A DNA stretch of 42,847 nt from a virus, in IMG/VR virus record IMGVR_UViG_3300021446_000309; one strand, written 5' to 3'. Every line of letters begins with the position of its first letter. Position 1 is the stretch's first letter. Made by a program: the position numbers and the translations under genes. Shown here piece by piece: positions 19,632 through 37,211 of the stretch. The notes under the pieces were generated by a model. That model was given only the letters and a program-made list of their open reading frames with translations. It had not been told where the DNA came from and made no database searches.

Positions 19632-19701
19632 TCGCCGCCACACCGTTCTGCGACGGGCTGGCGGGCGGAAGCTTTTCTCTCGCGGCGCGTAACCCGGTCG
19701 T

Positions 19702-21930
19702 ATGGAACTCGGTGCGAAGGCAACAGCGATACGACAGCTCACACAGGCGGTCACAGCCGGGCGCATCACAGCGACCGAGACGCCGGCTCGGATCGAGCGC
19801 GCCCTCTCCGACGCTCGCGATGCAACCCGACTCACGGAGGGAGCCGCCGACGATATTCGGGCGCAGATACCCTCTGACCCGCCATACGAGCGTACTGCGG
19901 TGCGGGACCTGTACGACGTGATCGACAAGAAACTCGGGACGGTCCCGATCAACCGTACCGACGTCCCCGATCCGTCTGCAACTGCTGTCGCGACCGCCGA
20001 GGCAATCGGCTCGCTCGATGTGTTCCGCGATGCAGACGCCGCGTATGAGTTCTTCGAGGAGTGGCTCGACCGGAACCGCCCGTTCTTCAACGAGACCGTC
20101 CCACGCCGGGCGTTCTCGGGTGCGGGCGGTGTCTCCGAACAGTCGGCTGCGGCACTCATCGAGTTCGCGGACGAACTGTTTCCGCTCACGCTGTCGCAGC
20201 AGCTTTCCGAAGACGTCCTCGGTGATGCTGGCGGTGACGGACAGGCGACACTCGGCAGCGGTCGCTCGCAGTCATCGACAGCCACCGACGCCCCGACGAC
20301 TGAGCCAGCCGAGACGACGAGCGAGAGCCGACAGTTCCAGCTCGGAGACGCGTCGACGCTCTCGGGCGCACCCGACCAGATCGGGGAGTTCAGCCTTCTC
20401 GGTCTCATCTCGCCGCAGGCAGAGAGCGATCTCGAACGCGTCGTCTACACCGGCCCACGCATGAGCCGACTCGCCCCCGACGGCGACAGCGACGAGTCGC
20501 TCGCGGTCTACGCACAGGAGATGGAACAGACCGGCTGGAACATCACTGTCGGAACGATCAACGCCGACGACTCACTCGGTCGACTGCTGTTCGTCGAGGA
20601 GTTCAACATTCCATCACGCGACGCCGCGATCAACGGGCTGGTGACGTACATCCGCGAGGACGCACTCGATACAGTGCTCAGTCGTCGTGGGCTGTCGTCG
20701 CTCCCCGATGCCGGCGGCCCGTCCCCCGTCGAGTTTCAGGAACCGATGAACGAAGCTACCCGCGACCGCTTCGCGTTCCTCGATGAGATGAACGAATCTA
20801 TGACGATTCCAATCGACCCCACCACCACCGGCCTCCCGACGAGTATCGGCAACTTCCGACTTGTGCAGGACGACGACGACCGAATCGGGTATCAGGGACC
20901 GCTCACGTCGGACGGGCTTCAGTTCGTCGCTGATCCCGAGTCGGTGTCTCGTCGAGACGCAAACGAGCGGCTCTACGTCGAGGCAGCGACGTTCAGTGGT
21001 CGCGGGAACGCCGCCGACCCGACGGTCAACCGCCGGACGGAGTTCACCGAGGGCTACACCGTGTTCTTCCATCAGGCGACGTCCCCCGACGCACAGGTCA
21101 CGCCCGGTACACCCGTCTCCGATGGTGGTCTCTCGCGACAGGAGGCCATCGCCCGACTCACCAACTTCCTCGCGCAACGTGGGTCGCTCCTCACCGACGG
21201 GCAATCCGCCGACCAGATGGAGGCGATCCTGCTGTCGGGTGATGCACAGTCGTTCGGTGATCTCGAAGCACAGGTCGTATCCGACGGCACGACCGAGGAG
21301 ACAGCCGAGCAGATGACTCTCACCGACGACACGGACACGAGCGGCGAACCACGACGAGCTGATACGGAGTCGTTCGGTGATCTCCGCGCCGAGCGTGCGA
21401 GCACCGAGGAAACCACCGACCAGATGGGACTCGATGGCCCTGCCCGCGAGGAGACTGTTCGAGCGACCGAGGCGGCAGAATCTCGCCAGAACACGACCGA
21501 GGATGACACTGACGAGGGACAGTCTACGCTCATGGACAACGCGAAAGCTGATATTGAGGTTCGCGTCCGTGCCGACGGCAGCCGTGAAGTCTGTCTCGTG
21601 AACGCCTCTGAACCGCTTCCCGACAGCGCAATCGCCGAGGCGTCGATGCAGGTCACGCGCGTTCTCGGTGGCGGGATCAACGCCTACGACGAGACCATTC
21701 GGATCGGGACCGCACGGTTCAACGACGCGAAAGCGTTCGTGAACGTGGACTTCAATCCCGATCTCGTCCCGCTCACGTACGAGGGAAGCGACGGCGACGA
21801 CAGTATCATCGGTAGTCCCGAGGAACGCGAGGAGGCGCGTCGGCGGTACAAAGCCGCTCGCGATGACGCCCACGACAGCATCGAGGAGTTAGGGCTGACA
21901 GACAACGCGCTGAACAGCCGAGACCGATGA
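19702..21930 (+). CDS. Large acidic protein, probable virion/core component
   Basis: 742 aa; internal repeat SFGDL...TEET.(E/D)QM.L; several QxxL motifs; GGAAG-CTTTTC promoter 30 nt upstream. Confidence 0.7.
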   Translation: MELGAKATAIRQLTQAVTAGRITATETPARIERALSDARDATRLTEGAADDIRAQIPSDPPYERTAVRDLYDVIDKKLGTVPINRTDVPDPSATAVATAEAIGSLDVFRDADAAYEFFEEWLDRNRPFFNETVPRRAFSGAGGVSEQSAAALIEFADELFPLTLSQQLSEDVLGDAGGDGQATLGSGRSQSSTATDAPTTEPAETTSESRQFQLGDASTLSGAPDQIGEFSLLGLISPQAESDLERVVYTGPRMSRLAPDGDSDESLAVYAQEMEQTGWNITVGTINADDSLGRLLFVEEFNIPSRDAAINGLVTYIREDALDTVLSRRGLSSLPDAGGPSPVEFQEPMNEATRDRFAFLDEMNESMTIPIDPTTTGLPTSIGNFRLVQDDDDRIGYQGPLTSDGLQFVADPESVSRRDANERLYVEAATFSGRGNAADPTVNRRTEFTEGYTVFFHQATSPDAQVTPGTPVSDGGLSRQEAIARLTNFLAQRGSLLTDGQSADQMEAILLSGDAQSFGDLEAQVVSDGTTEETAEQMTLTDDTDTSGEPRRADTESFGDLRAERASTEETTDQMGLDGPAREETVRATEAAESRQNTTEDDTDEGQSTLMDNAKADIEVRVRADGSREVCLVNASEPLPDSAIAEASMQVTRVLGGGINAYDETIRIGTARFNDAKAFVNVDFNPDLVPLTYEGSDGDDSIIGSPEEREEARRRYKAARDDAHDSIEELGLTDNALNSRDR

Positions 21931-23342
21931 GCCGGTTCGGTGGCCTCCCCGAGGACATGACCACGCTGAGTGGCCTGTCTGTTGCCGTACAGAATCTTTC
22001 AGAGGCACTGCAACGCCCCGTGGAGTCAGCGAGCATCTTCTACTCGCTGTTGTATCTCAACAACATCGCCGAGATGCCGGGCGCGTCCTTCGACTTCAGC
22101 GTACAGACGGACCGCCTCTACGACGCGTTTGAGCTATTCTCCTTCGCGACGATCATCCGCGAAGCCTCCGTACTCGAACAGGGCTTCTACCTCGATGGCT
22201 TCCGGGGACAGGGATTCTACTCACAGAACAGCGAGTATGAGCTATCACGACTCGTCCGACACTTCCGCGAGACAGTCCCCGAACACCGTGGACGGGTGGG
22301 GAAGTTCATCCGCGCCGCACGGAGACTTCGGGCTTCCTCTGGCGAGAAGCCGGGGGACATTAACGAGATGCTTCGATACGCCGAACGCGAGTTTTCCGCC
22401 GTCTCTGAGCCGGACCAAACCGTGCGGATGATCCAGCGAATGTTCGATGCTCACCCGACCATCACGACCGAGGACCTTGACGAGAATCCGGCAACGATGG
22501 ATACTGGACCAATTCCACAGGGACCGACCGGATGGATTGCTGGCTACGACGGCCCGGCGTGGGTCGGTATCTGTGACCACTTCCTCCGTCGCGAGGAGTT
22601 CTCCAAGCCGGTGTGGGTTGACCAGTCGTGGTCCATCGAGCACAACAATAGCGTCTGGCTCGATAAGATCGACGCGACACCTGACCAGCAAGACACCGCC
22701 GATGAACACCTCACAAACGCACTCTACATCGGCGACACAGGCCCACAAGTCGAACCACCGGCGACGGTGGCGACGAAGCGGCTCCTCGACGCGAACCAGA
22801 ACGGAAACCTCCGAACGGTGATGACTGTCGCACAGACCTACGACGATGCCATCTCACTCGATCTCTCGCGCGTCCTCCGTCGCCGGGAGATTCCGGGCAC
22901 AATCCCGAACTACCGGACACAGACCTACCCCGCGACCCTCGAACTGACCAGTCAGGCACAGGCGTTCGCGGCGTACGCCACCGTCTCATGGGGGCGGTCG
23001 GAACTCGACACCCGACGGGATGCGCTGTTCTGGCTGTACGGCGATACCGAGGAGGCACGAGAGACAACTATCGTCACCGAACGAACGACGCTCGGACAGA
23101 TCAAGTCGAAGCTCCCACGAGCGATCATACGCGACAGCGAGACGGTCCCCCCGCCGGTCGGACTCTCGCTCACCGAGAAACAGCTCACAACGCTGTACGA
23201 ACTCGCACAGAAGATGCGCGCTGAACTCACCGTCATGGGACCGGGCGTAAACGATCTCCTCCGAGAGATCGACGAGGACGCACTCGCGACGGTGCTGGAA
23301 CGGTCGGGGCAACTCTTAGGACGAGTCCCGACAAACCCATAG
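21927..23342 (+). CDS. Hypothetical protein with GYxGxAWxxI...D...HNN...DK motif
   Basis: 471 aa; motif seen directly; function unknown. Confidence 0.65.
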   Translation: MSRFGGLPEDMTTLSGLSVAVQNLSEALQRPVESASIFYSLLYLNNIAEMPGASFDFSVQTDRLYDAFELFSFATIIREASVLEQGFYLDGFRGQGFYSQNSEYELSRLVRHFRETVPEHRGRVGKFIRAARRLRASSGEKPGDINEMLRYAEREFSAVSEPDQTVRMIQRMFDAHPTITTEDLDENPATMDTGPIPQGPTGWIAGYDGPAWVGICDHFLRREEFSKPVWVDQSWSIEHNNSVWLDKIDATPDQQDTADEHLTNALYIGDTGPQVEPPATVATKRLLDANQNGNLRTVMTVAQTYDDAISLDLSRVLRRREIPGTIPNYRTQTYPATLELTSQAQAFAAYATVSWGRSELDTRRDALFWLYGDTEEARETTIVTERTTLGQIKSKLPRAIIRDSETVPPPVGLSLTEKQLTTLYELAQKMRAELTVMGPGVNDLLREIDEDALATVLERSGQLLGRVPTNP

Positions 23343-23347
23343 TCGAG

Positions 23348-23554
23348 ATGACGCAGTACAATCCAGACGACGAACACGCGTTCCTCCGGGGCGTCTGCCG
23401 GCGTGTCGGAATCGACCCCGATACCGACACCGCTCCCGATTTGGAGGCGCTGGCACACGACGACTCGAAGACCCTTCGCGAGAAGATGGAGGCAATCGGC
23501 GGACACGCCGCCGAGCAGCTCGCCACCCGTCGCAAAGCCACTGAAACACGATGA
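23348..23554 (+). CDS. Small hypothetical protein
   Basis: 68 aa; ATGA overlap with the next gene. Confidence 0.65.
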   Translation: MTQYNPDDEHAFLRGVCRRVGIDPDTDTAPDLEALAHDDSKTLREKMEAIGGHAAEQLATRRKATETR

Positions 23555-24471
23555 GTGGCGCACAGAACGAGGACATTGGGGCGATTGCCGAGCAAATCAT
23601 CAACTGGGTTTCTGGCGTCCGGTGGGGCGACCAGCAGGACGAGAAGGCAGAGCGACTAATCGAGTCGCTGAACGCCGGACCTGATGCGTACATCGACCCG
23701 GCGCTGTCGGCCTCCACGAACTACGAGATGCTGAAAGAGGAGTTCGGACTCCAGACGGCGCGCGACCGCGAGAAGATCGCCCGTGATACTCGCGAGCAGG
23801 ACCGCCGACGAGCGTTCGATGAGATTCGTGACCAACTGGAGACCTTCGGCGTCGAGAGCGTCATCACCGCCGTCGCAGAGGACGACCCGGAAGCCGTCCC
23901 CACCGAACTCGAACAGCGCGTGGACGACGTACTCGAAGTCCTTCCGCCGGACGCATACGACGGCGTGATACAGGACCACCTCTCCGACGTCCTCGCTACC
24001 ATCGCCCCCGATCTCGTCGTCCTCGACCGCGCGAACCTCGACAGAGAACGGGAGGCTGGCCGACTGGCTGGCCGTCGTGAGTCCCGCGAGATACTCGAAG
24101 ATGCGTTCGGTGAGGAGTTCGGGTCGATGGAGGCTGCGGCTGACTTCTTCGACTCTCGCGTTCGCGAGGTTATCGAGAACGAAACCGAGCTTCGCGAGGC
24201 GGCAGAACGTGCGGCCCGACAGGACATTCTCGATGGGTTAGGCGAGACGTTCAACGGCTCGTTCGATACCGTGGCCGACGCACGACAGAACATCCGGCAG
24301 CGAGCACAACGCGAGGGCGAACAGGCGGTGTTGAACGAACTCGCGACGATTCTCAACCGCGAGATACTCACCGTGGACGACGCCCTCGATGCACTGCGGG
24401 ACGAGTTGGGGATCGTCCCGGACGAACCGAACGACCGCGCCGAGCGAGCAATCGACCTACTGCAACAGTAA
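23551..24471 (+). CDS. Coiled-coil-rich acidic protein
   Basis: 306 aa; R/E/A-rich helices. Confidence 0.75.
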   Translation: MSGAQNEDIGAIAEQIINWVSGVRWGDQQDEKAERLIESLNAGPDAYIDPALSASTNYEMLKEEFGLQTARDREKIARDTREQDRRRAFDEIRDQLETFGVESVITAVAEDDPEAVPTELEQRVDDVLEVLPPDAYDGVIQDHLSDVLATIAPDLVVLDRANLDREREAGRLAGRRESREILEDAFGEEFGSMEAAADFFDSRVREVIENETELREAAERAARQDILDGLGETFNGSFDTVADARQNIRQRAQREGEQAVLNELATILNREILTVDDALDALRDELGIVPDEPNDRAERAIDLLQQ

Positions 24472-24474
24472 CAC

Positions 24475-25215
24475 ATGAGCTTACAAGACCTTGCAGACGA
24501 GTTCTCCGCCGACGAGATCGAAGCCCTCGCCGCCGATATTCGATCCGACGAGGTTGACGACGACCGCGCCGAACAACTCGAATCGTTGATCGACGAGGCG
24601 ACAGCCGACGAGGAAGCAACAGCCCTCGAATCCAACACGGGGCTGCTCGACCTGTACGCGACACTCGATCTCCTGCCACCGGAGTCGTTCGGCACGACGC
24701 CCCCCATCGAGGAGGAACCCGATGACGACTTCGTGGTTGATGTGAGCGACGCTGACGTCGAGTTCGAGATCGAAGACCCGGAGCCGGAACTCGACGACGA
24801 TCAGGTGAACTCCGCGCTGGATGCGCGACGGGCGGCCACCGACGACGACGAGGCAGCACCGACCGATGCGTCGGACCTGTTCGGTGGGCGCGGCATCGAG
24901 CGACTTGACGAGAGTGAGGCCCTCCGACAGATCGACCAACGACTGCCCGACACGCGGTTTTCGGTGACGGATCGACCGACTGCGGCGGCGACTGACCGGG
25001 CGCTACTCAACCAGCGATTCCCGACGCCGAACAAGAAGTCAGAGTACGAGCGCGTCGAGGGGACGCGACTCGACCGACCGAACCCGCCGGACCCGATCTC
25101 GTGGTGGGAACTGGTCGCGGAGAACGCACCGGGGCTGACGACCGAGGAGTATCTCGCGGCCCAACAGGGGCGGTTCATCGGCGGTCGTGATGACAACGCT
25201 GGACTACTCCCGTAG
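24475..25215 (+). CDS. Highly acidic hypothetical protein
   Basis: 246 aa; D/E-rich N-terminal half. Confidence 0.75.
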   Translation: MSLQDLADEFSADEIEALAADIRSDEVDDDRAEQLESLIDEATADEEATALESNTGLLDLYATLDLLPPESFGTTPPIEEEPDDDFVVDVSDADVEFEIEDPEPELDDDQVNSALDARRAATDDDEAAPTDASDLFGGRGIERLDESEALRQIDQRLPDTRFSVTDRPTAAATDRALLNQRFPTPNKKSEYERVEGTRLDRPNPPDPISWWELVAENAPGLTTEEYLAAQQGRFIGGRDDNAGLLP

Positions 25216-25229
25216 GAGACAGCCGCTAC

Positions 25230-25266
25230 CGGCAGATTGCGCGGGGTACTACGCCGAACGCTTTTG
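25230..25266 (+). promoter_or_regulatory. Structural-operon promoter: CGGCAG element plus BRE/TATA
   Basis: GGCAGATT at 25231 and CTTTTG at 25261. The same 30-nt spacing recurs at 27795/27825, 30099/30129 and 32862/32892. Confidence 0.6.
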
Positions 25267-25295
25267 GTAGTTTGGTGGCAACCACAAGATGCATC

Positions 25296-25736
25296 ATGGC
25301 AGACAGAATGAGCATGCAGGTCGCTCCGGGGGCGAAGAACCTCGATCCGAGCGAGCTGCTTGGCGATGTAGACGCCCGCGACATCCAAGTCGGTGTCGAG
25401 CACGGGCCGTCCGGAACGCAGTACAACCGGATGGCGGCTCCGTGGGCGGGTGCGGCATACGTCGTCAACGGCGACGGTAGTATCACCAAGATCGCAGGGC
25501 GCGACGGCGCGCTGACGGGTGAGGAACTGGAGAACCAGTATCCGAACCTTCGCGACGTGTGGGTGCAGTTCGCACGCGCACAGCAGAACCGAGACGCCAG
25601 CCCCGGTTCCTTCGAGGCACTCCTCACCGATCTTCAGAGTGTCGCGTCGAACCTCTCGGACGTCGGCCAGATGGCCGAGTCCGAAGGGCAGAGTCTCGCT
25701 GCGCGAAAGATGGCGGCCCGACAGGGGAGTCTCTGA
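25296..25736 (+). CDS. Hypothetical protein, probable virion protein
   Basis: First gene after the capsid-operon promoter; start refined to MADRMS. Confidence 0.7.
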   Translation: MADRMSMQVAPGAKNLDPSELLGDVDARDIQVGVEHGPSGTQYNRMAAPWAGAAYVVNGDGSITKIAGRDGALTGEELENQYPNLRDVWVQFARAQQNRDASPGSFEALLTDLQSVASNLSDVGQMAESEGQSLAARKMAARQGSL

Positions 25737-25747
25737 GGTAGCCTCTC

Positions 25748-26236
25748 ATGGCTTCCATCGTCACTCGCGAGGCGTCCTCCATCGCACGCGAAACCCAAGA
25801 TGCGCTGGTCGCACGCGACATTCAGGGTCTCGCGTTCGTCGCACTCTCGGCGGCAGCCGGTGTCGTCGTCGCACAGGAGATCGCAGACCGCGTGCTCCCG
25901 CTCCTCGGCTTCAGTCGTGAGCCGACGACTTCGAGCGGCTTCGCCGTCTCCGGTCTCGTGAAGTTCGTCGTCGCACTCGGTGCGGGCGTCGCGGCGACGT
26001 CGCTCTCGGGCGCAGCACTCGCCGTCGTCGCCTTCGTCGGTCTCGGGCATCTCGCCGGAGCCGGCGCAGACGCGTTCAACGCCATCCAGCGAACGGGCTT
26101 CTTCGCGGAAGCACCGTCGATGGGCGGCAACGAACAGACGGCGACCCGCACCCGAGCGGCGAACACGGCGCGACAGCAGTCGCAGCCGACCGCCGCGAGC
26201 GGGGCAGACGGCACGGCGACGGTGCAGGTCGGGTAA
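25748..26236 (+). CDS. Gly/Ala-rich multi-pass membrane protein, candidate internal-membrane virion protein
   Basis: Three to four hydrophobic segments; immediately precedes the putative capsid gene. Confidence 0.7.
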   Translation: MASIVTREASSIARETQDALVARDIQGLAFVALSAAAGVVVAQEIADRVLPLLGFSREPTTSSGFAVSGLVKFVVALGAGVAATSLSGAALAVVAFVGLGHLAGAGADAFNAIQRTGFFAEAPSMGGNEQTATRTRAANTARQQSQPTAASGADGTATVQVG

Positions 26237-26337
26237 CGCACCCACCGACACCACTGCTCGCCTTCTGAACGCGTCGGACTGGAACGTATCCGACGTACAC
26301 CATCAACTGCGCGGAAACGCACACACATCACATCAAC

Positions 26338-27546
26338 ATGAGCACAAACGGTAACGGCGGCTCCCCCGGTCCAGCTGGACAAGCTGGAACGAACGTGGCC
26401 GTCCCTGACACAATCGACTTCGTATACGAGGTCGGGACCGATGGCAACATCGCCCCGAATCAGATCGTTCGCGGTGAGGACGACTACACACTCGTCGACG
26501 GAGACCCACAGACAGATACCAACGAAGTGATGGAGGTGTTCAAAGTCGAGATCGACCCGGCTGAGGACACCACCACCACCCCCAACAGTCTGTCCACAGT
26601 CGATTCGATCCGGCTGTGGAACGGCGATTCGTACTACGATCACGTCCGGTTCCGCGAGTTCCAGTCGCGGCTGTTCGGTCCCACCGAGAACAACAGCACG
26701 CCGATGCTCGGACAGCCGGTACTCGCCGGGACGAACAACCCCGCGAGCGATCCCATCGGAACCGCGACGCCGAAGTACGGTCCCTCGGAGACCATCACGC
26801 CGGCCATCATCAACGACGGCACGGCGATCTCCGAAGGGACGTTCACGATCCGCTTCCACGTCTACCGCTGGAAGGGGTCGAACGCCGAGTTCGTGGACTT
26901 CTTCAACGACGTCTACGGTCGCACGTCGTTCCAGCAGAACATCTCGTTCTCCAACCCGTACACGGGCGAGTCGCAGACCTACACGCGATCCGATCCGGCG
27001 AACATCGCAGAGGGAACCTCCGAGTCAACGCTCGGAGCCTTCACGAAGCTGGCTGGCGGCGTGAACCAGTCACTTCCGAAGGTCTATCCGTGGGTCACAC
27101 ACGCCGAGAACGGCAACGACACCCGCCCCAACCGGGAGTACGAGTTCACCACGCGGAACGGCAACGTCGCCAACCAGTACGAGCGACTGGAGTTCGACTA
27201 CACCGACCGCGAGAACGCCGTTCTGTTCGAGCACATCGCTGTCCAGCAGAACAGCGACCTCGACAGCGGGACGTTCGTCGTCGAGGAGCGCGATGAGGAC
27301 CCGGACGTCAATCTCGGGTCCGGCGTGCGCCACGAGCTGCCGCTGCTTCGCGATCCGGACGACACGAGTACGGTCGAGGAGTTCGACGCCGGGCAGGTCC
27401 CGGTCTCGGTCGCAGACCGCTTCAACTCCAAGCAGGCGATCTGGAGCGACGGCGGTGGGTTCCGCGTCATGGACGACGGGACCAGTATCCCGGCTGGCGA
27501 CATCCTGATCGGTGTCCACGGTCGGAAGCTCGAACTCACGACGTAA
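26338..27546 (+). CDS. Putative major capsid protein, probably a (double) jelly-roll
   Basis: 402 aa; beta-strand pattern throughout, no TM; strongly C/G-ending codons; position after a membrane protein and before a T-tract. The mid-protein TFTIRFHVYR...LPKVY segment recalls a DJR inter-domain region. Fold not verified. Confidence 0.6.
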   Translation: MSTNGNGGSPGPAGQAGTNVAVPDTIDFVYEVGTDGNIAPNQIVRGEDDYTLVDGDPQTDTNEVMEVFKVEIDPAEDTTTTPNSLSTVDSIRLWNGDSYYDHVRFREFQSRLFGPTENNSTPMLGQPVLAGTNNPASDPIGTATPKYGPSETITPAIINDGTAISEGTFTIRFHVYRWKGSNAEFVDFFNDVYGRTSFQQNISFSNPYTGESQTYTRSDPANIAEGTSESTLGAFTKLAGGVNQSLPKVYPWVTHAENGNDTRPNREYEFTTRNGNVANQYERLEFDYTDRENAVLFEHIAVQQNSDLDSGTFVVEERDEDPDVNLGSGVRHELPLLRDPDDTSTVEEFDAGQVPVSVADRFNSKQAIWSDGGGFRVMDDGTSIPAGDILIGVHGRKLELTT

Positions 27547-27554
27547 CCCGCTAC

Positions 27555-27572
27555 AGCCCCTTCGTTTTTTGC
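27555..27572 (+). terminator. Pyrimidine/T-tract after the capsid gene
   Basis: GCCCCTTCGTTTTTTG just after the stop; may double as the TATA for 27596. Confidence 0.5.
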
Positions 27573-27595
27573 CGCGTGCGCCCACAGCGAGTAGC

Positions 27596-27793
27596 ATGGC
27601 GTCCAACAGCTTCCATCGCGGCGACCGCGTTCGTGTCACTGATCCCGAGACCGGCGAGACAACTGTCGCGACCGTCCATCGTGCTGATGACGGATACTCC
27701 CCCCGGATTCAGTACGGCAACAACCAGTACGACCGCGCCGAGCCGACGACGCTCACGATCATCGAGGAGACCGACGACGACGAGACCGAGTAG
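27596..27793 (+). CDS. Small SH3/KOW-like beta protein
   Basis: FHRGDRVRVTDPETGETTVATV pattern. Confidence 0.6.
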   Translation: MASNSFHRGDRVRVTDPETGETTVATVHRADDGYSPRIQYGNNQYDRAEPTTLTIIEETDDDETE

Positions 27794-27856
27794 CGGCAGA
27801 TTTCCCGCGTTCTCCGGGCAACGACTTTAGCCTGTGCTACGCAACCAACGGGTAGA

Positions 27857-28948
27857 ATGACAATCAGTAGCGAATACACGCCGCTCTCGCGTGTGGCACT
27901 GGCCCCGATCCGCGCGGTCGCGGCTGATGCGTTCGACCTGCCGGGGAACGACTCGCGAACCATCCTCGACCAGCAATTCCCCCGGTCACAGGCCGTGTTC
28001 CCGACACGGATCGGCGCACGACCGGACGACGGGGTGCGTGTCACCGTCGAATCTACCCGAAAGACAGAGCGCGGCGAAACGAGCGAGACGGTGGACGTCG
28101 AATCTACCGCGCTCACCGCCCTCGACGAGCCAGTCGATGCCGGCCCCGCCGCAACCGAACGGCTTCAACTGGAGGTATCGAATCGGAGCGGACAGGACTA
28201 CACGACGGCTGCGGCTGGTGTCAGCCCGTATCAGACGTTCACTGAGTACGAGGTTCGCCAGCCGACCGTCCTCGACAAGCTCCGGCGGAACATCCCGCTC
28301 ACGCAGCGCGAGCAGCAGCTTGCAGAGCAGTTCGACCTCTCGATGCGCGAGCGACTCCACATCCCACTCGATGAGGGCGACTACTTCGAGCCGACACTCA
28401 GCGGCAAAAGCGTCATCGAGACGGATGCCGAGACAGCGACCCTCGATCTCCCCGGCGAGGGCGCGACCGCCGCCACGCCCGTCGTGAACGAGACGGTACG
28501 CGGTGAGGAAGTCCTCTACGTCACCGGTGTACGCATCAACGGCGACGACTACGCGCCGTCTGCCGACCCGACGGTCGTGTTCACTCGTGGTGAGACGGAC
28601 GAGTTCTACCGGCTGAAGGCGTCTGGCCTCCCGTCGAACCCGTTCGAGGCCGACCTGCACCTGCCGTTCCTGCGAAGTGCGAACGTCGCCGTCTACGCTG
28701 AATCGTCTATCAACGCCGTCGACGTCGTGATCGAGACGGCGCGCGTCCGGCGGAACCTCCCCGAGAAGGCGCTGTACGGGCTGAAGAACGAAGTGCAGTC
28801 GAACGACAGCCTCTCGGAGCAGCGCGCCCGCATCTACACGGAACTGCGCGAGCGACTGCGCGCAGGGGTGTCCATCCAGCCGGCACTCGACCGCCTCGGT
28901 GACGCGACCACCAGCAGCACACCGGCAACACGACCACAGTCACGATGA
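27857..28948 (+). CDS. Second capsid-like protein with two repeated beta domains
   Basis: 363 aa; both halves end in similar motifs (EYEVRQPTVLDKLRRNIPL / ETARVRRNLPEKALYGL). Confidence 0.5.
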   Translation: MTISSEYTPLSRVALAPIRAVAADAFDLPGNDSRTILDQQFPRSQAVFPTRIGARPDDGVRVTVESTRKTERGETSETVDVESTALTALDEPVDAGPAATERLQLEVSNRSGQDYTTAAAGVSPYQTFTEYEVRQPTVLDKLRRNIPLTQREQQLAEQFDLSMRERLHIPLDEGDYFEPTLSGKSVIETDAETATLDLPGEGATAATPVVNETVRGEEVLYVTGVRINGDDYAPSADPTVVFTRGETDEFYRLKASGLPSNPFEADLHLPFLRSANVAVYAESSINAVDVVIETARVRRNLPEKALYGLKNEVQSNDSLSEQRARIYTELRERLRAGVSIQPALDRLGDATTSSTPATRPQSR

Positions 28949-29637
28949 GTGGGAGCGAACAACCGCGACTCGGGAGCGTCGTCGAGGAAGCCCGCGAGCT
29001 GCTGGCCTACCCGTTCGAGGCCGATGAGCGGAATGATATGCAACTCGAACTGCTGCGACAACAGACCGAACTCCTCACCGAGATCGGCGCGCAACTCGGC
29101 GGGCAACAGCAGACCACCGGCCCATCCACGGTTCCCCGTAGTGGTGGTAGCAGCGGGAGCGGAAACCGGAGTCGGGTCGGCGGCGTCCAGCGAGTCAGCG
29201 GCGACACGTTCGTCTACCGTGGCGAGGAGTACGCCGTCCCGTCCGTGGTGGATCGTGGAGACGCCATCGCGACGTCGAACCAGTCCTACTCCACCGCCAC
29301 CGATACATACGAGAACGAAGGCGCGAGCGTCGATGCCGGAGAGCGGAAGCTGGCTGCCGCCGTGGAGACGACCGGGCGTGAGGTGTTCCTTCTGCGTGCG
29401 ACGAACGCCACGCTCCACTCTACGATTCGGTACGAATACGTGTTCAACGATGCCGCTGCACCCGACCCTGCACTGTCTGGCTCGACACCGTGGGCGACGC
29501 CGCCGGACCTCTACACCGTCGGGTCACCGTTCGTCCTCGTCGAGGATTCAGTCGAACTCTACCTGAACGAACAGAGTGGGAACACCGAATACGACGAGAC
29601 AGCGGGCGCACTGATCGGCGTTCGCGTGGAGGTATAG
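28945..29637 (+). CDS. Penton/vertex-like protein (C-terminal single beta-sandwich)
   Basis: N-terminal helix, G/S linker and a beta-rich C-terminal domain. Confidence 0.45.
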   Translation: MSGSEQPRLGSVVEEARELLAYPFEADERNDMQLELLRQQTELLTEIGAQLGGQQQTTGPSTVPRSGGSSGSGNRSRVGGVQRVSGDTFVYRGEEYAVPSVVDRGDAIATSNQSYSTATDTYENEGASVDAGERKLAAAVETTGREVFLLRATNATLHSTIRYEYVFNDAAAPDPALSGSTPWATPPDLYTVGSPFVLVEDSVELYLNEQSGNTEYDETAGALIGVRVEV

Positions 29638-29641
29638 CACG

Positions 29642-30061
29642 ATGGCGCTCGGTGCTGGACTACTGGAAGGCGCGCGCGTCTCGAAGCTCGTCGGTATCCG
29701 CCCCGACGACTTCGCCTACCAATCGCACTCCGGGCTGGTCTTCCACCCGCAGGACGAGAACAACACCGGCAACATCCCGTTCTACGAGGTGACAGCGGCA
29801 GGGGACAGCATCACCGTCGATCTCGCGGCAGCTGTTCGTGAGTTCGACAGTCCGGCCCTCCAACTCAACTTCGTGTTCGGATCAACGAGCTTCACCGTAC
29901 AGAACGCCGCTGGACAGACGGTGGTCGATGAGCTATCCGGTTTCGACACCGACAACTTCCATGCCTCACTCGCTGCGACAGACAAGGAACTCACGGTGAC
30001 GTCGTTCGACGATACGACGGCTGGCCTCTACGCGTTCCAGCTCGTCTACGATCAGGAGTAG
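29642..30061 (+). CDS. Small beta-rich structural protein, paralog A
   Basis: GIRP...HPQDENNTGNIPFYE shared with 30157-30558. Confidence 0.7.
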   Translation: MALGAGLLEGARVSKLVGIRPDDFAYQSHSGLVFHPQDENNTGNIPFYEVTAAGDSITVDLAAAVREFDSPALQLNFVFGSTSFTVQNAAGQTVVDELSGFDTDNFHASLAATDKELTVTSFDDTTAGLYAFQLVYDQE

Positions 30062-30156
30062 TCCGGCGCGCGACGGGGAAATTCTGCGTCGGACAACCGG
30101 CAGGTTTGCAGGGTACGAGGACGGACGACTAAGGGCACGGACACACGAGTAGCAGT

Positions 30157-30558
30157 ATGCTCATCGGCATTCGACCGCAAGACGAGGCGTACTACGGCTC
30201 CGACGGCGTTGTCTACCACCCACAGGACGAGAACAACACCGGCAACATCCCGTTCTACGAGATTACCGACACAGCCGACTCTATCGAGTTCGATCTCACC
30301 GGCCACCTCGGAGGTCTCGACACGCCTATCGCTGTCTTACACACGGCGTTCGGCACGACTGACTTCGATCTACGCGACCGCGAGACCGACGATGCGATCA
30401 TCTCCGAGCAGTCCGGCTTCGATCAGGATACGTGGATCGTCGATCTCTCCGGCACGTCCGGACGGTACGAACTCACGCAGTTCGACACGACGAACGGCGT
30501 CGATGGAACACAGGCCGGCTGGCAGGCGTACATAACGCTCCTCGGCGCGGAGACGTAG
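30157..30558 (+). CDS. Small beta-rich structural protein, paralog B
   Basis: Same motif as 29642-30061; has its own promoter. Confidence 0.7.
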   Translation: MLIGIRPQDEAYYGSDGVVYHPQDENNTGNIPFYEITDTADSIEFDLTGHLGGLDTPIAVLHTAFGTTDFDLRDRETDDAIISEQSGFDQDTWIVDLSGTSGRYELTQFDTTNGVDGTQAGWQAYITLLGAET

Positions 30559-30631
30559 CCCCAGATGGTATAGTCGGGGGAATTGCCGGAAGTGACCAAA
30601 CTGCTTTGTGAGCGCGCGCTCTCGGACGCCT

Positions 30632-31534
30632 ATGGGCAATGAGTCACCAGAGACCGCGCTCGATAACCGACTCTCCGAGGTAGAAACCGCTATCGTCTAC
30701 GTCGAAACCCCGGCTGGTCGGAACGTGCCACTCCGCGTCGACGGTGAAGGCCGGCTCGTGACGAACCTCGATGCAGCCACGCTGCTCGAAACCGATCTTC
30801 AGGAAATCGGTGGGCAGCCACAGTCAGGCGTGGACGTCGCCGCACGGATCGACGCGCTCGTGGCTGCACTCGTCTCGAACGGTGGGGATGCACTGCGAAT
30901 CAGTTCACCAGCTCCGCTCGACGTCTCAAGTTCGGAGGTGGACGTCAATCTCACAACACAGACAGCATCACCGCTCACGATTACCGACGACGGCAGTCTC
31001 GCCGTCGCGTCGCTTCCAGAGCCACTCGACGTTTCGAGCGCAGAGGTGGACGTCGATCTAAACACACAGACGCTCGGGGCAGTCACGGTGACAGATGATG
31101 GGAGTCTCGTGCTGGATGCCGCGAATCAGTCCACACTCCCCGTGGAGCAGCAGTCCCCGGTCGGGATCGAGGACTCCACCGGTACACAGACTGACCCCGC
31201 TATCGCGACCGCGTACCTCGACTACCAGAACACCGGGTACGATCTGATCGCGTCCGGTGATCTCGTTATCGGCCCCAGTGCGGTCGAACGCGGGACAGCC
31301 GTCGTCATCGCCGCGTCGTCGGTAGACAACAACGCGTTCTCTGTCTCTGTCCAGTGGGAAGACGGGTCTGGAAACGTGTTTCAGAGCGAGAGTGCCGCAG
31401 ATATAGGCCTCGATAACGTCACCGAGGACTACGCTCGGCTGGTCCGGAAGGCTCCACAGGTTGAACTCACCATCACCGACGAGTCCGGGGCTGCACAGAA
31501 CAACATCAACATCCATACCGACACGGAGCGGTGA
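30632..31534 (+). CDS. Spike/fibre-like protein with a 36-aa tandem repeat and C-terminal beta domain
   Basis: PLDVSSSEVDVNL...TDDGSL occurs twice. Confidence 0.6.
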   Translation: MGNESPETALDNRLSEVETAIVYVETPAGRNVPLRVDGEGRLVTNLDAATLLETDLQEIGGQPQSGVDVAARIDALVAALVSNGGDALRISSPAPLDVSSSEVDVNLTTQTASPLTITDDGSLAVASLPEPLDVSSAEVDVDLNTQTLGAVTVTDDGSLVLDAANQSTLPVEQQSPVGIEDSTGTQTDPAIATAYLDYQNTGYDLIASGDLVIGPSAVERGTAVVIAASSVDNNAFSVSVQWEDGSGNVFQSESAADIGLDNVTEDYARLVRKAPQVELTITDESGAAQNNINIHTDTER

Positions 31535-31540
31535 GCACTG

Positions 31541-32860
31541 ATGCCCTACGATCAAATCGCGAACATCGGAACGCCGGCTGGCGGGCAGGTATCCGATACA
31601 CCCTACCGCGCCCGTAAGACCGCCCCACAGACAGTCCAGTTCTCCATCGACCCCGACTTCCCACTCTCGAAGAAGCGGTGGTTCTACGCCTCGAATGGAA
31701 CGGCGTTCGATGCGACCAACTTCGACGGACGTCCGGGCGAGATACGGCTCTCAACGACGGCCACCGGGAGCGACACCGCCCGACTCCGAACGGCGATCTC
31801 CGGCGAGTACGTCTCTCACGCGCTCGCAGAGCCGGGGCAAGCCGTCCGTATCCCGACAGACCATCTCGACTACCGAACGAACGGCGGTGTGCAACTGACA
31901 CACGGGCGCATCATTTGGGGTGCGTTCACCTACGATGCTGCTACGAACAGCATCGAGAACGGCTTAGGACTGGTGATCGACAACAACGGTATCTCGGCGT
32001 TCCTCCGCAAGAACTCGGCTCACGTCAGTAACTCACCAGTGCAACAGGAAGACTGGAATCTCACCACCGTACTCGATCCCGGCGAAGGGGGCGGTACACT
32101 GTCACTGCAAGACGGACTGACGTGGAACGAGCCGTACACATGGTACAACGCGAATCCGCTGACCATCGGCTACGTCGACGCGCAACTCGACCGCCTCCGC
32201 CCGGTTCACCAGTTTCGTCCGGAGACGTCTCCCACGATGGGGACGCCGAATCTTCCGATTCAGTTCGTCGTTGAGAATCAGGGAACCGCCGACCCGCTGG
32301 AGCTGTTCACCGGCGGTGTCCAGTACAGCACGTTCGGCGCGTCACCGGAAGCGCGGAATATCCGGCGTACAGTCACCGGACGCAGTACGTCGAACAGCTT
32401 CATCAACACCGCAGCCGTCGCGAACAACAACGCAGTCGATCCGTTCGCTGAAGCCGGTGTCCCGCTACTCGCCGTCCGTCGTCGAGGGAGACAGACGATG
32501 CCGCTCAACACAGAGAGCTTCGAGATACGGCCAACGAACGACATCTACGCGTTTGTGTGGGACGAGTACGACGAGGGGGCTGCCCTCACCGGCGCGAACT
32601 TCAGACAGCCACACGGCGACAACACAGGCGTTGAGAGCCAAGTCGAAGTCGATACAGAGGCGACGGCGTACGCACCGGGGACAGCTGTCTTACGCGAGGT
32701 AATTCCCCTTCGCGGCGGTGACACTGTTCCAATCGAGTTCGCTGATGACCGGACTGGAAACGATGTACCTGATCGGGCTGCAAGACTTGTGACGGCGGTT
32801 CATCGTGGAAGCGGCTGTGATGTTGACCCGATTCGTGCGCGGCTGACTGAGGGATACTAA
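31541..32860 (+). CDS. Concanavalin/lectin-like virion protein
   Basis: 439 aa, beta-rich; ...QEDWN...YTWY...HQF...PNLPIQFVVEN resembles a widespread viral beta-sandwich protein. Confidence 0.5.
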   Translation: MPYDQIANIGTPAGGQVSDTPYRARKTAPQTVQFSIDPDFPLSKKRWFYASNGTAFDATNFDGRPGEIRLSTTATGSDTARLRTAISGEYVSHALAEPGQAVRIPTDHLDYRTNGGVQLTHGRIIWGAFTYDAATNSIENGLGLVIDNNGISAFLRKNSAHVSNSPVQQEDWNLTTVLDPGEGGGTLSLQDGLTWNEPYTWYNANPLTIGYVDAQLDRLRPVHQFRPETSPTMGTPNLPIQFVVENQGTADPLELFTGGVQYSTFGASPEARNIRRTVTGRSTSNSFINTAAVANNNAVDPFAEAGVPLLAVRRRGRQTMPLNTESFEIRPTNDIYAFVWDEYDEGAALTGANFRQPHGDNTGVESQVEVDTEATAYAPGTAVLREVIPLRGGDTVPIEFADDRTGNDVPDRAARLVTAVHRGSGCDVDPIRARLTEGY

Positions 32861-32919
32861 CGGCAGTCTACCACGGGAAACTGGCACACAGTAATAGTAT
32901 TCCAGCGTAAAATAGCAGT

Positions 32920-33900
32920 ATGGCACAAGAGAGAGTTCCGCAGTCTCCGAAAGTAGGCTCCAAACAGGGATATACATGGGGCGACGAACCCGCGAGATTA
33001 GAAGATCGGCTAAGTTACACAGCTGTTGCGTCCACCGACTCGAAACTCTATATTGTCGGTGGTCGGTCGGTAGCGCGCAATGATCCAACGCCGTTAGTAC
33101 AACGGTACGATCCCGCCGATAACACGGTGGAAACACTACAACAGATGTCGACAGATCGAGAGCGGGCGGCTGTCGGAGTTATTGATGGTAAAATCTACGC
33201 CGTCGGTGGATTCAGCGGCGGTTTCCCACGTTGGAAGGACGTACTGGAGCGGTATGATCCTGACAGCGACTCATGGACCACGCTTGAACCGATGCCGACA
33301 CCGCGAGATGGACTATCTGCTGAGGTTATCGACGGGAAACTGTACGCTATTGGCGGGCGAGACAGTGACAACAACGACTTAGATGTAGTGCGAGTATATG
33401 ATCCGGATAGCGATTCATGGACGACGCGCACCCCCATGTCGAACGCGCGAAAGAAGTTCGCCACGGGTGTCATCGACGGAGAGATATATGTTGCGGGAGG
33501 GGATCAAACCGTATACAGCGACCCCATACAATCGGTAGAACGATACGATCCCAAGAGTGATTCGTGGACGGCGCTGGAACCTATACCAGACCATTCAGAC
33601 GCCTCTAACGGCCCGTACTATCCGTTTGTTCATGGCGGTGCTGTCCTCAACGGAGAGCTGCACACAGTTGGTGGATATAATGCCAGCGAGAGCGATGAAG
33701 CGGATACAAACGTGTCTTCCGTGCAGTCGTACGATCCCACCACAGATAGATGGACAGAGAGACAGGCGTACTCTACCCGTCGTGCCGGTGTTGGAGTTAC
33801 AACAGTGGAGCAGACACTCTATGTCGTTGGTGGATACCCCTTCTACGAAGTTGACACAGAACAAGATGACATCATTTCATACTTCCAGCCGATAGCATAG
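32920..33900 (+). CDS. Kelch-repeat beta-propeller protein
   Basis: Six repeats of the form K(L/I)Y(A/I)(V/I)GG...V(E/Q)(R/S)YDP..(D/N).W. Confidence 0.9.
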   Translation: MAQERVPQSPKVGSKQGYTWGDEPARLEDRLSYTAVASTDSKLYIVGGRSVARNDPTPLVQRYDPADNTVETLQQMSTDRERAAVGVIDGKIYAVGGFSGGFPRWKDVLERYDPDSDSWTTLEPMPTPRDGLSAEVIDGKLYAIGGRDSDNNDLDVVRVYDPDSDSWTTRTPMSNARKKFATGVIDGEIYVAGGDQTVYSDPIQSVERYDPKSDSWTALEPIPDHSDASNGPYYPFVHGGAVLNGELHTVGGYNASESDEADTNVSSVQSYDPTTDRWTERQAYSTRRAGVGVTTVEQTLYVVGGYPFYEVDTEQDDIISYFQPIA

Positions 33901-33959
33901 AGCAATTCGTGTATAGAACTGGAGATTCGGCAAATCGCGGATTATAGCCAACAGATTTA

Positions 33960-33970
33960 CCCCCCCCCCC
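33960..33970 (+). repeat. C11 homopolymer between the TATA-like box and the fibre start codon
   Basis: ATTTA followed by C11, 13 nt before ATG 33984. Confidence 0.85.
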
Positions 33971-33983
33971 GCTATGTGTACGT

Positions 33984-34967
33984 ATGGCACAAAAACGGGT
34001 TCCTCCTGATGCAGTCTCAACCGACCCATTCGAGGCGACGTCGATTAAGTCAGAAGAAGGCGTCACCATCACATCGGATAAGACAATTACCTACGGTCGC
34101 GACCACGGTGCGACTGGTGATGGGAGAAGCGTCGTCATCGGTGTCGGTGCTCGTGCGCTTGCACCTGCGAACGATGTGGATGATCCTAACGGCGGCGATC
34201 CACGAAAAGTCGCTATTGGCTATGAAGCGTCGAAAAACGACGAGGTATTCGGGAGTACAGTAGTTGGGTATCAGGCTGCGCGAGATATTTCATTTAGTTC
34301 ATTCGATTCTGGCAGGTATACAGCAATGGGGTATCAGGCGGCGCAGTATGCTGACAATGAACGGATGGTAGCGGTCGGTTATCAAGCATCAAAAAATAAC
34401 ACTTCTGGAGGTGCTGTCTTTGGGTATAAAGCGGCAGAGGAAAACAGCGGAGGTTCTCTGACAGCGGTAGGAAACTACGCCGCACGGAATAACGCAGGAT
34501 ACCGCGTTACTGCGGTGGGCCGGAGAGCAGCGAATGAGAACACAGTACGGAGTGTCGTTGCAGTCGGGTTTAGCGCAGCAAACCGCAATACAGGTCGGTA
34601 TTCAACGTTGGTCGGAAACAGCGCAGGATACGACAACACAGGAGAGTTTAGCGTAGGGATTGGGTACAATGCGCTGGAGGATAACACTGGAAACTACGTT
34701 ACAGGAATAGGAATGAGTGTGGCAGATGGAGATGGCCTCGATGACACGATGACAATGGGCGACAACAACGTCGCTGTTGGATATAAGGCCATCCAAAATA
34801 ATCAGGCATCGGGTCTCATCGCCATCGGTCAATATGCTGGTCAAGATGCACAGACAGACGATCAGCTCATCATTACGCAACAGGATGGAACTCGCCGGAT
34901 GGTGATGGACCTGACGACCGGCGATTTACAGATCACCGGAACACTCACAGAGAACGCAGCACTCTAA
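33984..34967 (+). CDS. Beta-roll fibre/adhesin (YadA-head-like 14-aa repeats)
   Basis: Many (V/T)A(V/I)GYQA..NNT repeats with about 14-aa period. Confidence 0.75.
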   Translation: MAQKRVPPDAVSTDPFEATSIKSEEGVTITSDKTITYGRDHGATGDGRSVVIGVGARALAPANDVDDPNGGDPRKVAIGYEASKNDEVFGSTVVGYQAARDISFSSFDSGRYTAMGYQAAQYADNERMVAVGYQASKNNTSGGAVFGYKAAEENSGGSLTAVGNYAARNNAGYRVTAVGRRAANENTVRSVVAVGFSAANRNTGRYSTLVGNSAGYDNTGEFSVGIGYNALEDNTGNYVTGIGMSVADGDGLDDTMTMGDNNVAVGYKAIQNNQASGLIAIGQYAGQDAQTDDQLIITQQDGTRRMVMDLTTGDLQITGTLTENAAL

Positions 34968-34979
34968 GCAGATACGACA

Positions 34980-35264
34980 ATGACACAGACACTCACATAC
35001 AGCGGCGAGCAGACCACAGACGTATCGACGACACAGACAGTCATCGAGCAGAGCGTGGAAATACACACCGACGAGACGCCGACCGAAGTCAGCAGTGTCT
35101 CTCTCCGGCTGACTGACGACGGGGACGTCCGAACCATCATCTCGATCAGTGCGACCGGAGAGATCGAGGCACTGGAGGAACTTCGAGCACAGGTCGCACA
35201 GACAGCAGTCGATCTCGGCTTCGAGTCGGACGCAGAGACGCTTGAGGTAGACGTCGAATCATGA
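34980..35264 (+). CDS. Small acidic protein (possible fibre chaperone)
   Basis: 94 aa directly after the fibre gene. Confidence 0.6.
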   Translation: MTQTLTYSGEQTTDVSTTQTVIEQSVEIHTDETPTEVSSVSLRLTDDGDVRTIISISATGEIEALEELRAQVAQTAVDLGFESDAETLEVDVES

Positions 35265-36878: not shown

Positions 36879-37211
36879 CACGTCGTCGCCGTCGTCGAGT
36901 TCGGCTGCGTCGATGAACTCACCACAGGCCGGACACCACACGTCTGCCGGCTGTGTCTTCAACATCCCGCCGGTCGTGAGAAGCGGGTGGTCGAAGTCCG
37001 GGGCCTGTTCACGCAGTCGGTTTCGCAACATGGTTCGTGCGCCGAAGTCGCCGGTCGCGGCTCGGACGTGGAGATCGTCGCGCGACAGATCGAGGCGTTG
37101 TCGTGCCTGTCGGACGGTGTAGAGACCGTGTGAGCCACATCGCGGGCAGGGTGTCGTATCATCCACGGTCGGCTCCCAGTGCTTGTTCGACGTCGTGAGT
37201 AGATCGCTCAT
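36873..37211 (-). CDS. CPxCG Zn-finger protein
   Basis: CPRCG...CPACG; start refined to MSDLL. Confidence 0.7.
   Translation of the reverse strand: MSDLLTTSNKHWEPTVDDTTPCPRCGSHGLYTVRQARQRLDLSRDDLHVRAATGDFGARTMLRNRLREQAPDFDHPLLTTGGMLKTQPADVWCPACGEFIDAAELDDGDDVE

Follow-up and report, generated by a model that had tools for sequence, protein, structure and literature searches.

Two neighbouring, internally duplicated beta-rich proteins as candidate coat and vertex proteins of a large haloarchaeal virus without a detectable packaging ATPase

The IMG/VR virus record IMGVR_UViG_3300021446_000309, a stretch of 42,847 bases that is referred to here in its full length as the window, represents a haloarchaeal virus and carries between positions 25748 and 30558 a gene module in which two large genes, encoding proteins of 402 and 363 amino acids (aa), lie close together. 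An internal duplication is found in both proteins, probable in the former and clear in the latter, the pair is conserved together in bacteria and archaea, and signatures of an ATPase, a terminase or a portal are missing from the window. We propose that the 402-aa protein may be a double jelly-roll coat protein and the 363-aa protein a two-barrel vertex protein, and that they represent an undescribed lineage of large tailless viruses without ATPase, a reading to which we assign a probability of about one half.

Results

A gene pair common to bacterial and archaeal elements

The 402-aa protein has 14 homologues at 45-53% identity, and a profile of its homologues retrieves 116 representative clusters at E <= 1e-3 from 1.84 billion representatives (clustering at 50% identity), 73 of them at E <= 1e-10 and 7 at E <= 1e-30. 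Most members of this 402 family are not acidic, i.e. the family is not confined to halophiles, and the ten members examined sit on contigs of 1.7-60.7 kb. A scan of JGI metagenomes yielded two near-identical loci of 7 kb (L003 and L004) and a third one comprising 21 kb of a 41.9-kb contig (L005), with a G+C content of 59-65%; the identity to the window is 46-51% for the 402-aa protein and 38-40% for the 363-aa protein (tblastn). Prokaryotic genomes were searched for the 402 family by a motif scan with one genome per species, resulting in 51 loci. Seven of these carry genuine members of the family; they derive from a Dehalococcoidia metagenome-assembled genome (MAG), the isolate Orenia metallireducens MSL40, Ca. 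Culexmicrobium, a Desulfurococcales MAG, Ca. Syntrophoarchaeum, Ca. Methanoperedens and a Parcubacteria MAG, in which the end of the contig truncates the gene. Of the 401 genomes sampled in the same phylum as the Methanoperedens MAG, 4 contain the family, which was not found in the remainder. The Dehalococcoidia gene (G004:C86:397-1473), which was missed by the calling of open reading frames (ORFs), contains one in-frame TAG; a reassigned stop codon, an error in sequencing or a defective gene may be the cause.

Homologues of the 363-aa protein with 303-326 aa were found in 6 genome loci, and all five genome contigs examined at greater length possess such a gene (303-308 aa) in addition to that of the 402 family. 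In 8 of 8 distinct loci with sufficient downstream DNA it is located 0.3-2.3 kb downstream of the 402-family gene; in Methanoperedens the distance is ~9 kb. When ten elements were compared all against all, the 402 and the 363 family were each present in 9 of them and the next most shared family in 4. The pair is thus the sole common denominator of otherwise unrelated virus-like elements and looks like a morphogenetic hallmark module. A third family (197-249 aa), which may correspond to a PAPS-reductase-like protein, is common to the window, L005 (3830-4579) and the Culexarchaeal and Desulfurococcales contigs (L062, 6754-7347; L067, 418-1014).

Several collections gave no relatives. Scans of IMG/VR with the queries A1, P0019, P0018 and P0138 returned none and a motif scan one chance match (L008), A1 did not match the genome contigs, and megablast of window positions 19000-35000 against phages was negative. 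The same holds true for tblastn searches of 50,697 phage records with the 402-aa protein, the family members P0022 and P0025, and the 363-aa protein, as well as for a tblastn search of plasmids with the 402-aa protein. The alignment of the 402 family (A2) comprises 99 of the 116 clusters, leaving out 16 fragments of less than 280 residues and one protein of 510 residues; none of the 99 members matched PHROGs and none had a relevant match in NCBIfam. From the 363 family, 0 of 9 members matched Pfam, a profile search of the PDB with the corresponding alignment (A7) gave no real match, and a homologue search with the single 363-aa sequence returned the protein itself only. As a search with the related alignment A5 gave few proteins (at least 3), the breadth of the 363 family rests on nine loci and a hint from the ESM Atlas.

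The 402-aa protein resembles double jelly-roll proteins in a low-confidence model

The ESM Atlas contains the exact 402-aa protein, although its model is poor, with a predicted local distance difference test (pLDDT) value of 0.43 and a predicted template-modelling (pTM) score of 0.42. The first neighbour is a viral cluster of 373 aa (TM 0.63), which is probably the protein's own family. It is followed by four non-self neighbours aligned over 248-286 residues, i.e. GH172 (TM 0.48 by query and 0.57 by row), a Nucleocytoviricota cluster (TM 0.50/0.50; 286 residues) and two coat clusters of the PM2 P2 type (TM 0.48/0.63 and 0.51/0.59); in rows 6-10 the TM score is at most 0.32. GH172 (DUF2961) is the cellular double jelly-roll family, and four different double jelly-roll groups as sole meaningful neighbours of the model are a good lead, not proof. 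An earlier note on this DNA had described the protein as two-part and of double jelly-roll size, and the likeness to double jelly-rolls is borne out at the level of this model. An HK97 or non-capsid fold, the outcome named there as contradictory, was not seen in the Atlas models, whose confidence is low. A crude propensity profile of the Chou-Fasman type indicates a beta-rich family with ~5% helix (approximate values), which does not fit the HK97 fold.

The division into two parts is also visible in the alignment. In the 99-member profile the N-terminal half of the 402 family (~57-180) aligns with the C-terminal half (~285-399) with an hhalign probability of 66-71% and an E value of 4-6e-5 over 102-117 columns, whatever split point is chosen. 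The score of 33 compares with 12-14 for reversed-half controls and was reached by 0 of 40 block shuffles and, with gap columns pruned, by 0 of 200. This agrees with a build of two barrels, independently of the Atlas model. Moreover, the 402-aa gene has the highest G+C content at third codon positions (GC3, 0.84) among 57 scored ORFs, as expected for the most strongly expressed late gene.

The 363-aa protein is built from two similar units

An internal repeat of the 363-aa protein was undetectable with 4 sequences. In A7, which contains nine diverse sequences, the first half aligns with the second with an hhalign probability of 96.8% and an E value of 2.6e-10 over 142 columns; the score of 65 was reached by 0 of 40 and 0 of 150 shuffles, the maximum of which was 30. 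The protein is clearly a tandem duplication of a unit of ~160 residues, each copy ending in a similar motif, roughly T-V-x-E-K-L-x-Y-G-I-x-L-T-x-x-E. The earlier note had spoken of duplicated domain ends, which is right but understated, since the entire unit is duplicated and not its ends alone.

The Atlas model of the 363-aa protein has a pLDDT of 0.56 and finds its own family at a TM score of 0.57. Residues 185-300, i.e. one sandwich of ~115 residues, match viral proteins of 111-113 aa (TM by row 0.72-0.73), and residues 169-337, one half only, match GH172 weakly (TM 0.29 by query, 0.22 by row). Among the Atlas neighbours there is neither a P2-type nor any other coat cluster.

No packaging motor and no hallmarks of tailed viruses detected

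The P-loop motif [AG]xxxxGK[ST] is absent from all six frames of the window, and Pfam finds no ATPase, terminase, portal or capsid family among the 73 ORFs scanned. The virion-type module without an ATPase that the earlier note had recognised is therefore supported, and the lack of any P-loop protein in a genome of 42.8 kb is its strangest feature. An ATPase of the FtsK-HerA (A32/P9) type, as is characteristic of Varidnaviria/Bamfordvirae, was not found, and the large terminase subunit, portal and HK97 coat of Caudoviricetes were not found at the sequence level either. In PHROGs, ten window proteins gave no family except phrog_1645 for a 439-aa protein and a weak match to phrog_37389 for a 139-aa protein. 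Proteins of 742 and 471 aa matched neither Pfam nor PHROGs nor, by tblastn, the 50,697 phage records, and a 595-aa protein had no match in Pfam. In the PDB, searches with A1, A2, A7, the 742-aa and the 439-aa protein had no result beyond chance matches at E >= 0.43.

The same hallmarks are missing in relatives. Neither the Orenia contig, by the 25 listed of its 36 matched Pfam families, nor the 35.7-kb Culexarchaeal contig, by Pfam, has a terminase, a portal, an HK97 coat or an FtsK-type ATPase. Canonical P-loop proteins near the pair in the relatives are RecA/KaiC-like in look or have no family at all, e.g. the Orenia protein with the sequence GINLIGKS, which lacks a Pfam family. We examined a 235-aa P-loop protein of the Culexarchaeal contig as a candidate packaging ATPase and rejected it, as it is RecA/KaiC-like by eye, has only the P-loop in common with PM2 P9 and lies 11 kb from the pair.

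The gene module and its surroundings

Seven ORFs make up the module (Table 1), which lies in the middle of a string of genes: from ~18.2 to 35 kb most plausible genes of the window are on the + strand. The order proposed in the earlier note, i.e. membrane protein, 402-aa, 363-aa and 230-aa proteins and two small twins, is confirmed. Across the module GC3 amounts to 0.74-0.84 and the G+C content at second codon positions to 0.41-0.57, suggesting that the ORFs are genuine genes. The overall G+C content of the window varies between 52 and 68% across 1-kb windows, and acidic proteins are the majority of the proteins that it encodes.

Table 1. Genes of the module and further window features discussed in the text
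Feature	Position	Strand	Remarks
162-aa G/A-rich membrane protein	25748-26236	+	hydrophobic segments; homologue in L003/L004
402-aa beta protein, coat-like candidate	26338-27546	+	large unannotated family; ESM Atlas neighbours; aligned halves
93-aa ORF (65 aa from internal ATG at 27596)	27512-27793	+	between the 402-aa and 363-aa genes; absent from the earlier note
363-aa protein, two ~160-residue units; candidate vertex (penton/turret) or second shell protein	27857-28948	+	internal duplication
230-aa protein, candidate vertex-anchored spike	28945-29637	+	conserved N-terminus, G/S-rich linker, variable C-terminal part
139-aa protein, paralogue 1	29642-30061	+	45% identity to 133-aa protein
133-aa protein, paralogue 2	30157-30558	+	45% identity to 139-aa protein
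308-aa repeat protein and 439-aa virion structural protein, downstream, same gene string	30608-32860	+	308-aa, 30608-31534; 439-aa, 31541-32860, phrog_1645
306-aa and 246-aa acidic proteins, upstream of module	23551-25215	+
Third shared family	2344-3084	-
Gene with homologue in L005	173-925	-	L005 8106-8702
Gene with homologue in L005	1240-2073	-	L005 7230-8060

The 162-aa protein, which had been noted as a G/A-rich membrane protein, indeed has a G+A fraction of 0.33 and three overlapping hydrophobic windows, corresponding to ~2-3 membrane-spanning segments, and is the only one with segments of this type among 22 ORFs tested between 16 and 36 kb. Its identity to the equally placed ORF amounts to 52% in L003/L004, which are the only ones among L003-L005 to share it with the window, and it has no Pfam or PHROGs family. 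The 93-aa ORF weakly matches a 309-aa ORF of L003 (E 0.004). In the Orenia, Culexarchaeal and Desulfurococcales loci its place is taken by an ORF of 94-96 aa; a conserved family was rejected here, as position and size are kept and sequence similarity is not detectable.

In the 230-aa protein residues 7-55 match the ORF that follows the 363-aa homologue (blastp E 3e-4 in L003 and 0.009 in L005), and phmmer finds the N-terminus of ~50 residues at E 8.5e-5 (L003) and 3e-5 (L005); the remainder is not conserved, and the protein has no Pfam or PHROGs family. Spikes that insert into a vertex are usually built in this way, with a conserved N-terminus, a linker and a variable rest, which makes the protein a candidate for this role; the label 'penton-like' given to it previously is an interpretation, not an observation. 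The twin proteins are paralogues (111 aligned residues, E 1e-32). The 139-aa protein matches phrog_37389 at E 0.0038, and the 133-aa protein has no homologue in the related loci.

Among the proteins of the structural module, known relatives exist for the 439-aa protein alone. It matches phrog_1645, 'virion structural protein', at E 1.3e-16, and its relatives include gp4 of Sulfitobacter phage phiGT1 (25% identity over 82% of the query) and gp10 of Halovirus HGTV-1. All its homologues are found in tailed viruses, near or beside portal genes, suggesting gene exchange between tailed viruses and this tailless-looking virus. The 308-aa protein contains two tandem copies of ~37 residues, P-x-P-L-D-V-S-S-x-E-V-D-V-x-L-x-T-Q-T ... 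T-D-D-G-S-L, and matches an adenovirus fibre shaft very weakly (E 0.3); it may be a short fibre shaft. Genes for lectin-like, Kelch and fibre proteins lie further downstream. The 306- and 246-aa proteins encoded upstream of the module are strongly acidic, with a D+E fraction of 0.24-0.27, and tend towards helices; by composition alone they may be scaffold-like or DNA-mimic-like. Other Pfam matches in the window comprise a DUF6610/DpdA-type enzyme, a Dam-type methylase, a PAPS-reductase-like protein and an HNH nuclease. In L005 the homologues of the two genes at the left end of the window are + strand genes that immediately precede the coat-like module, and the window genes may thus belong to the virion module.

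The Orenia contig (L060 and L061, 37,231 bases) encodes an integrase, an Amidase_3 lysin, ArdA, RadC, a ParM-like actin and a beta-helix protein; its Pfam matches were obtained in alignment mode, and the ORFs flanking the pair have no family assigned. At least the first 60 bases recur at position 37136, near the end, so that the contig may be circular. It also bears host-like genes, i.e. a Na/Ca exchanger, a spore germination permease and FliE. On the Culexarchaeal contig a PAPS reductase, DUF5131, a helicase, Cas4, radical SAM proteins and zinc fingers are encoded.

Discussion

A proposed coat and a proposed vertex protein of tandem barrels

We favour a reading in which the 402-aa protein would be the major coat protein, consisting of two related beta-barrels, the trimers of which would tile the shell of a presumably icosahedral particle as pseudo-hexamers. 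Its codon bias and stronger conservation fit a major shell protein. The 363-aa protein would be its co-conserved partner, with a duplicated unit of a beta-sandwich plus a helix, and would most likely occupy the five-fold vertex as penton or turret base. The 230-aa protein may plug into this vertex with its conserved N-terminus and expose its variable remainder as an exchangeable spike, and the twin small proteins, together with the repeat, lectin-like, Kelch and fibre proteins downstream, may form an exchangeable set of spikes for host recognition. The upstream membrane protein might tie the shell to a lipid layer, if the particle has one, or aid assembly. As no P-loop ATPase is encoded, the genome would not be pumped in by a viral motor, but would become enclosed in the course of assembly or with the help of the host.

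Several points weigh against this reading. No sequence method tried ties the 402 family to a known coat protein: Pfam found 0 relevant families among the 99 members, P2_N and P2_C included, the best E value of A2 in the PDB was only 0.76, and hhalign with PM2 P2 gave a probability of 0.6%. The fold of the 402-aa protein is suggested by one public model of low confidence, with borderline TM scores of ~0.5. The internal repeat of the 402 family appears probable, not certain, and its support is moderate, as with unpruned gap columns 2 of 150 shuffles exceeded the real score, one at an implausible 132, and the 15 close homologues alone gave no repeat signal (9 of 60 shuffles attained their score of 15.4). 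With 25 of 36 matched families listed, a weak hallmark match could be hidden in the Orenia contig. Nothing observed assigns the shell to one of the conserved proteins rather than the other, or indeed to either of them. The module has only one membrane protein; PRD1 and PM2 have many. We know of no precedent for enclosing 43 kb without a motor. Finally, genomes of prokaryotic double jelly-roll viruses are given as 7-18 kb, and those without ATPase as 7-11 kb, in Yutin et al. 2018 (PMC5894146), and the 42,847 bases of the window lie outside this range, as do the contigs of 27-61 kb from which related proteins derive.

Alternative readings

An unlikely alternative, which nevertheless survives best, is that both proteins are shell proteins, i.e. 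that the capsid is tiled by two double-barrel proteins as a fused-gene counterpart of the single-barrel pairs of SH1 and P23-77. This corresponds to the two double jelly-roll-sized capsid proteins of the earlier note, and part of that claim stands: both proteins are large, duplicated, beta-rich, of similar size, adjacent and universally co-conserved, the 402-aa protein is placed near double jelly-rolls, the 363-aa gene likewise has a high GC3 (0.79), and a GH172 cluster is among the Atlas neighbours of its product. The 363-aa protein as second double jelly-roll shell protein is not supported, however, as the two families have no detectable homology, the GH172 match is weak and confined to a single half, and the Atlas neighbours span one sandwich and comprise no coat cluster. 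In addition, the 363 family diverges faster than the 402 family in the comparison with L003-L005, which fits a vertex or minor protein better, and a two-barrel vertex protein of the STIV A223 type would account for the 363-aa protein at least as well. A penton protein with a single jelly-roll, encoded close to the coat gene, is a feature of double jelly-roll viruses (Varidnaviria, Bamfordvirae); the neighbour seen here consists of two tandem units, and small viral sandwich proteins match part of it.

It is also improbable that the pair is not part of the capsid, but a conserved adsorption, adhesin or accessory module, in which case the coat would be the 742-, 595-, 471- or 306-aa protein or of a new kind. 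The missing sequence link to any coat protein and the low confidence of the Atlas model are in line with this possibility, and jelly-roll-like sandwiches are common in receptor-binding proteins and glycosidases, GH172 itself being an enzyme family. Adsorption proteins, however, are normally the least conserved ones, whereas here the pair alone is common to otherwise gene-disjoint bacterial and archaeal elements, clearly variable adhesin-like genes sit downstream, and the other large window proteins are not conserved even in L005, the closest relative.

We regard it as quite improbable that the 402-type protein, with its double barrel, forms a lattice or scaffold on a membrane, as does D13 of poxviruses, and that the particle is enveloped or vesicle-like and hence needs no motor. 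The genome without ATPase and the conserved membrane protein encoded beside the 402-aa gene would suit such a particle, but Pfam and PHROGs detect no genes for envelope fusion or for a spike or ATPase of the pleolipovirus type, and the string of fibre, Kelch and lectin-like genes, together with the structural homologue from tailed viruses, looks like spikes on a rigid shell.

A very divergent tailed virus, with terminase, portal and HK97 coat beyond the reach of profile searches, is highly improbable: it would explain the 439-aa protein, the portal-scaffold order of the 742-aa and the helical, acidic 306-aa protein, which is one by size only, and the label 'Uroviricota' of neighbouring Atlas clusters, but there is no P-loop in any frame, the 742-, 471- and 595-aa proteins remain without the matches sought, the absence of hallmarks is repeated in the Orenia and Culexarchaeal contigs, and the Atlas labels are unreliable, since PM2 P2-like clusters are labelled 'Uroviricota' as well.

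Relation to known virus groups

The reading as a coat and a vertex protein has its model in STIV (Turriviridae), which combines the double jelly-roll coat protein B345 with the turret proteins A223 and C381, both composed of tandem jelly-roll domains. STIV has a genome of 17.6 kb and encodes the packaging ATPase B204; unlike in STIV, no such ATPase is encoded here, and tblastn with the 402- and 363-aa proteins found nothing in the phage collection. In PM2 (Corticoviridae) P1 is a vertex protein and spike of the kind to which we liken the 363-aa protein, and the gene map is similar, with the coat gene followed by small proteins and then by a multi-domain vertex protein. P2-type coat clusters lie near the 402-aa protein in the Atlas, by a model of low confidence. 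In contrast to the window, PM2 has only 10 kb and the ATPase P9, and the 402-aa protein is ~130 residues longer than P2 and shows no sequence similarity to it.

SH1-type viruses possess two single jelly-roll proteins of ~185 and 230 aa and an FtsK-type ATPase. With SH1, HHIV-2 and SNJ1 (Singelaviria) the virus studied here has in common the host group and habitat, two conserved neighbouring coat-type genes and, in our reading, the lack of a tail. It differs in that each of the two proteins is double, an ATPase is not encoded and no tblastn match was found in the 50,697 phage records; the combination of two single jelly-roll coats and an FtsK-type ATPase that marks Sphaerolipoviridae and Simuloviridae is thus not seen in the window. 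The tailless icosahedral haloarchaeal viruses described in the available part of a recent preprint (bioRxiv 10.1101/2025.02.15.638363) have two single jelly-roll coat proteins, and within the partly available sources our literature search found no haloarchaeal double jelly-roll virus. The novelty for haloarchaea claimed in the earlier note holds in this respect; a haloarchaeal peculiarity it is not, as the gene pair extends to bacteria and other archaea.

Odin-group/Huginn viruses (Yutin et al. 2018, PMC5894146; Tamarit et al. 2022, PMC9246712) share with the window a double jelly-roll coat or a candidate for it, the lack of an ATPase, a small gene upstream of the coat gene (conserved in the Odin group; PMC5894146), a conserved minor protein of the jelly-roll type and the intermixing of bacterial and archaeal members. 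The absence of an ATPase is described there for the Odin group (7-11 kb) and for FLiP, a single-stranded DNA virus, only (PMC5894146), i.e. the packaging ATPase is not strictly universal in double jelly-roll viruses. In contrast to the Odin group, the window has 42.8 kb, and contigs of up to ~60 kb carry its relatives.

The Coyopavirales (Chaacviridae and Ixchelviridae) of ANME-1 (anaerobic methanotrophic) archaea have double jelly-roll coats that were recognised only by structure modelling, and Chaacviruses have linear genomes of 10-11 kb with a protein-primed polymerase (Laso-Perez et al. 2023, PMC9894754). Like them, the virus analysed here is archaeal and, in our reading, tailless, and has a candidate coat without sequence similarity to known ones. 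The isolate name of one relative, the Syntrophoarchaeum MAG (L022; 12019_3), includes the number of one of the mineral samples that the paper mentions. The relation of the 402 family to MCP-1 to MCP-3, the major capsid proteins (MCPs) of Coyopavirales, is the main uncertainty as to novelty. If the 402 family is the coat of Coyopavirales or of the Odin group, what we describe would be a branch with large genomes within a known group and not a lineage of its own.

Implications

The gene pair links a haloarchaeal virus to unannotated elements in halophiles of the Firmicutes type, Chloroflexota, bacteria of candidate phyla, methane-cycling archaea and Thermoproteota. As it is not caught by Pfam, PHROGs, NCBIfam or scans of IMG/VR, virus detection based on markers may miss such elements. 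If our reading is true, a double-barrel coat in a haloarchaeal virus would constitute a second capsid lineage in this host group. More tentatively, and with less confidence than we have in that reading, we speculate that the elements form a double-stranded DNA lineage of 35-60 kb that spans both domains and builds tailless capsids from two tandem-duplicated beta-barrel proteins without a packaging ATPase. The genomes exceed the 7-18 kb stated in PMC5894146 for prokaryotic double jelly-roll viruses two- to fourfold and have no detectable motor, which raises the question of how 40 kb enter the particle. The member of the family in the cultured isolate Orenia metallireducens MSL40 offers an entry point for laboratory study. 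As the barrels within each protein can still be aligned with each other, the lineage would represent an early or independent transition from single to double barrel and, if true, bears directly on the origin of double jelly-roll capsids.

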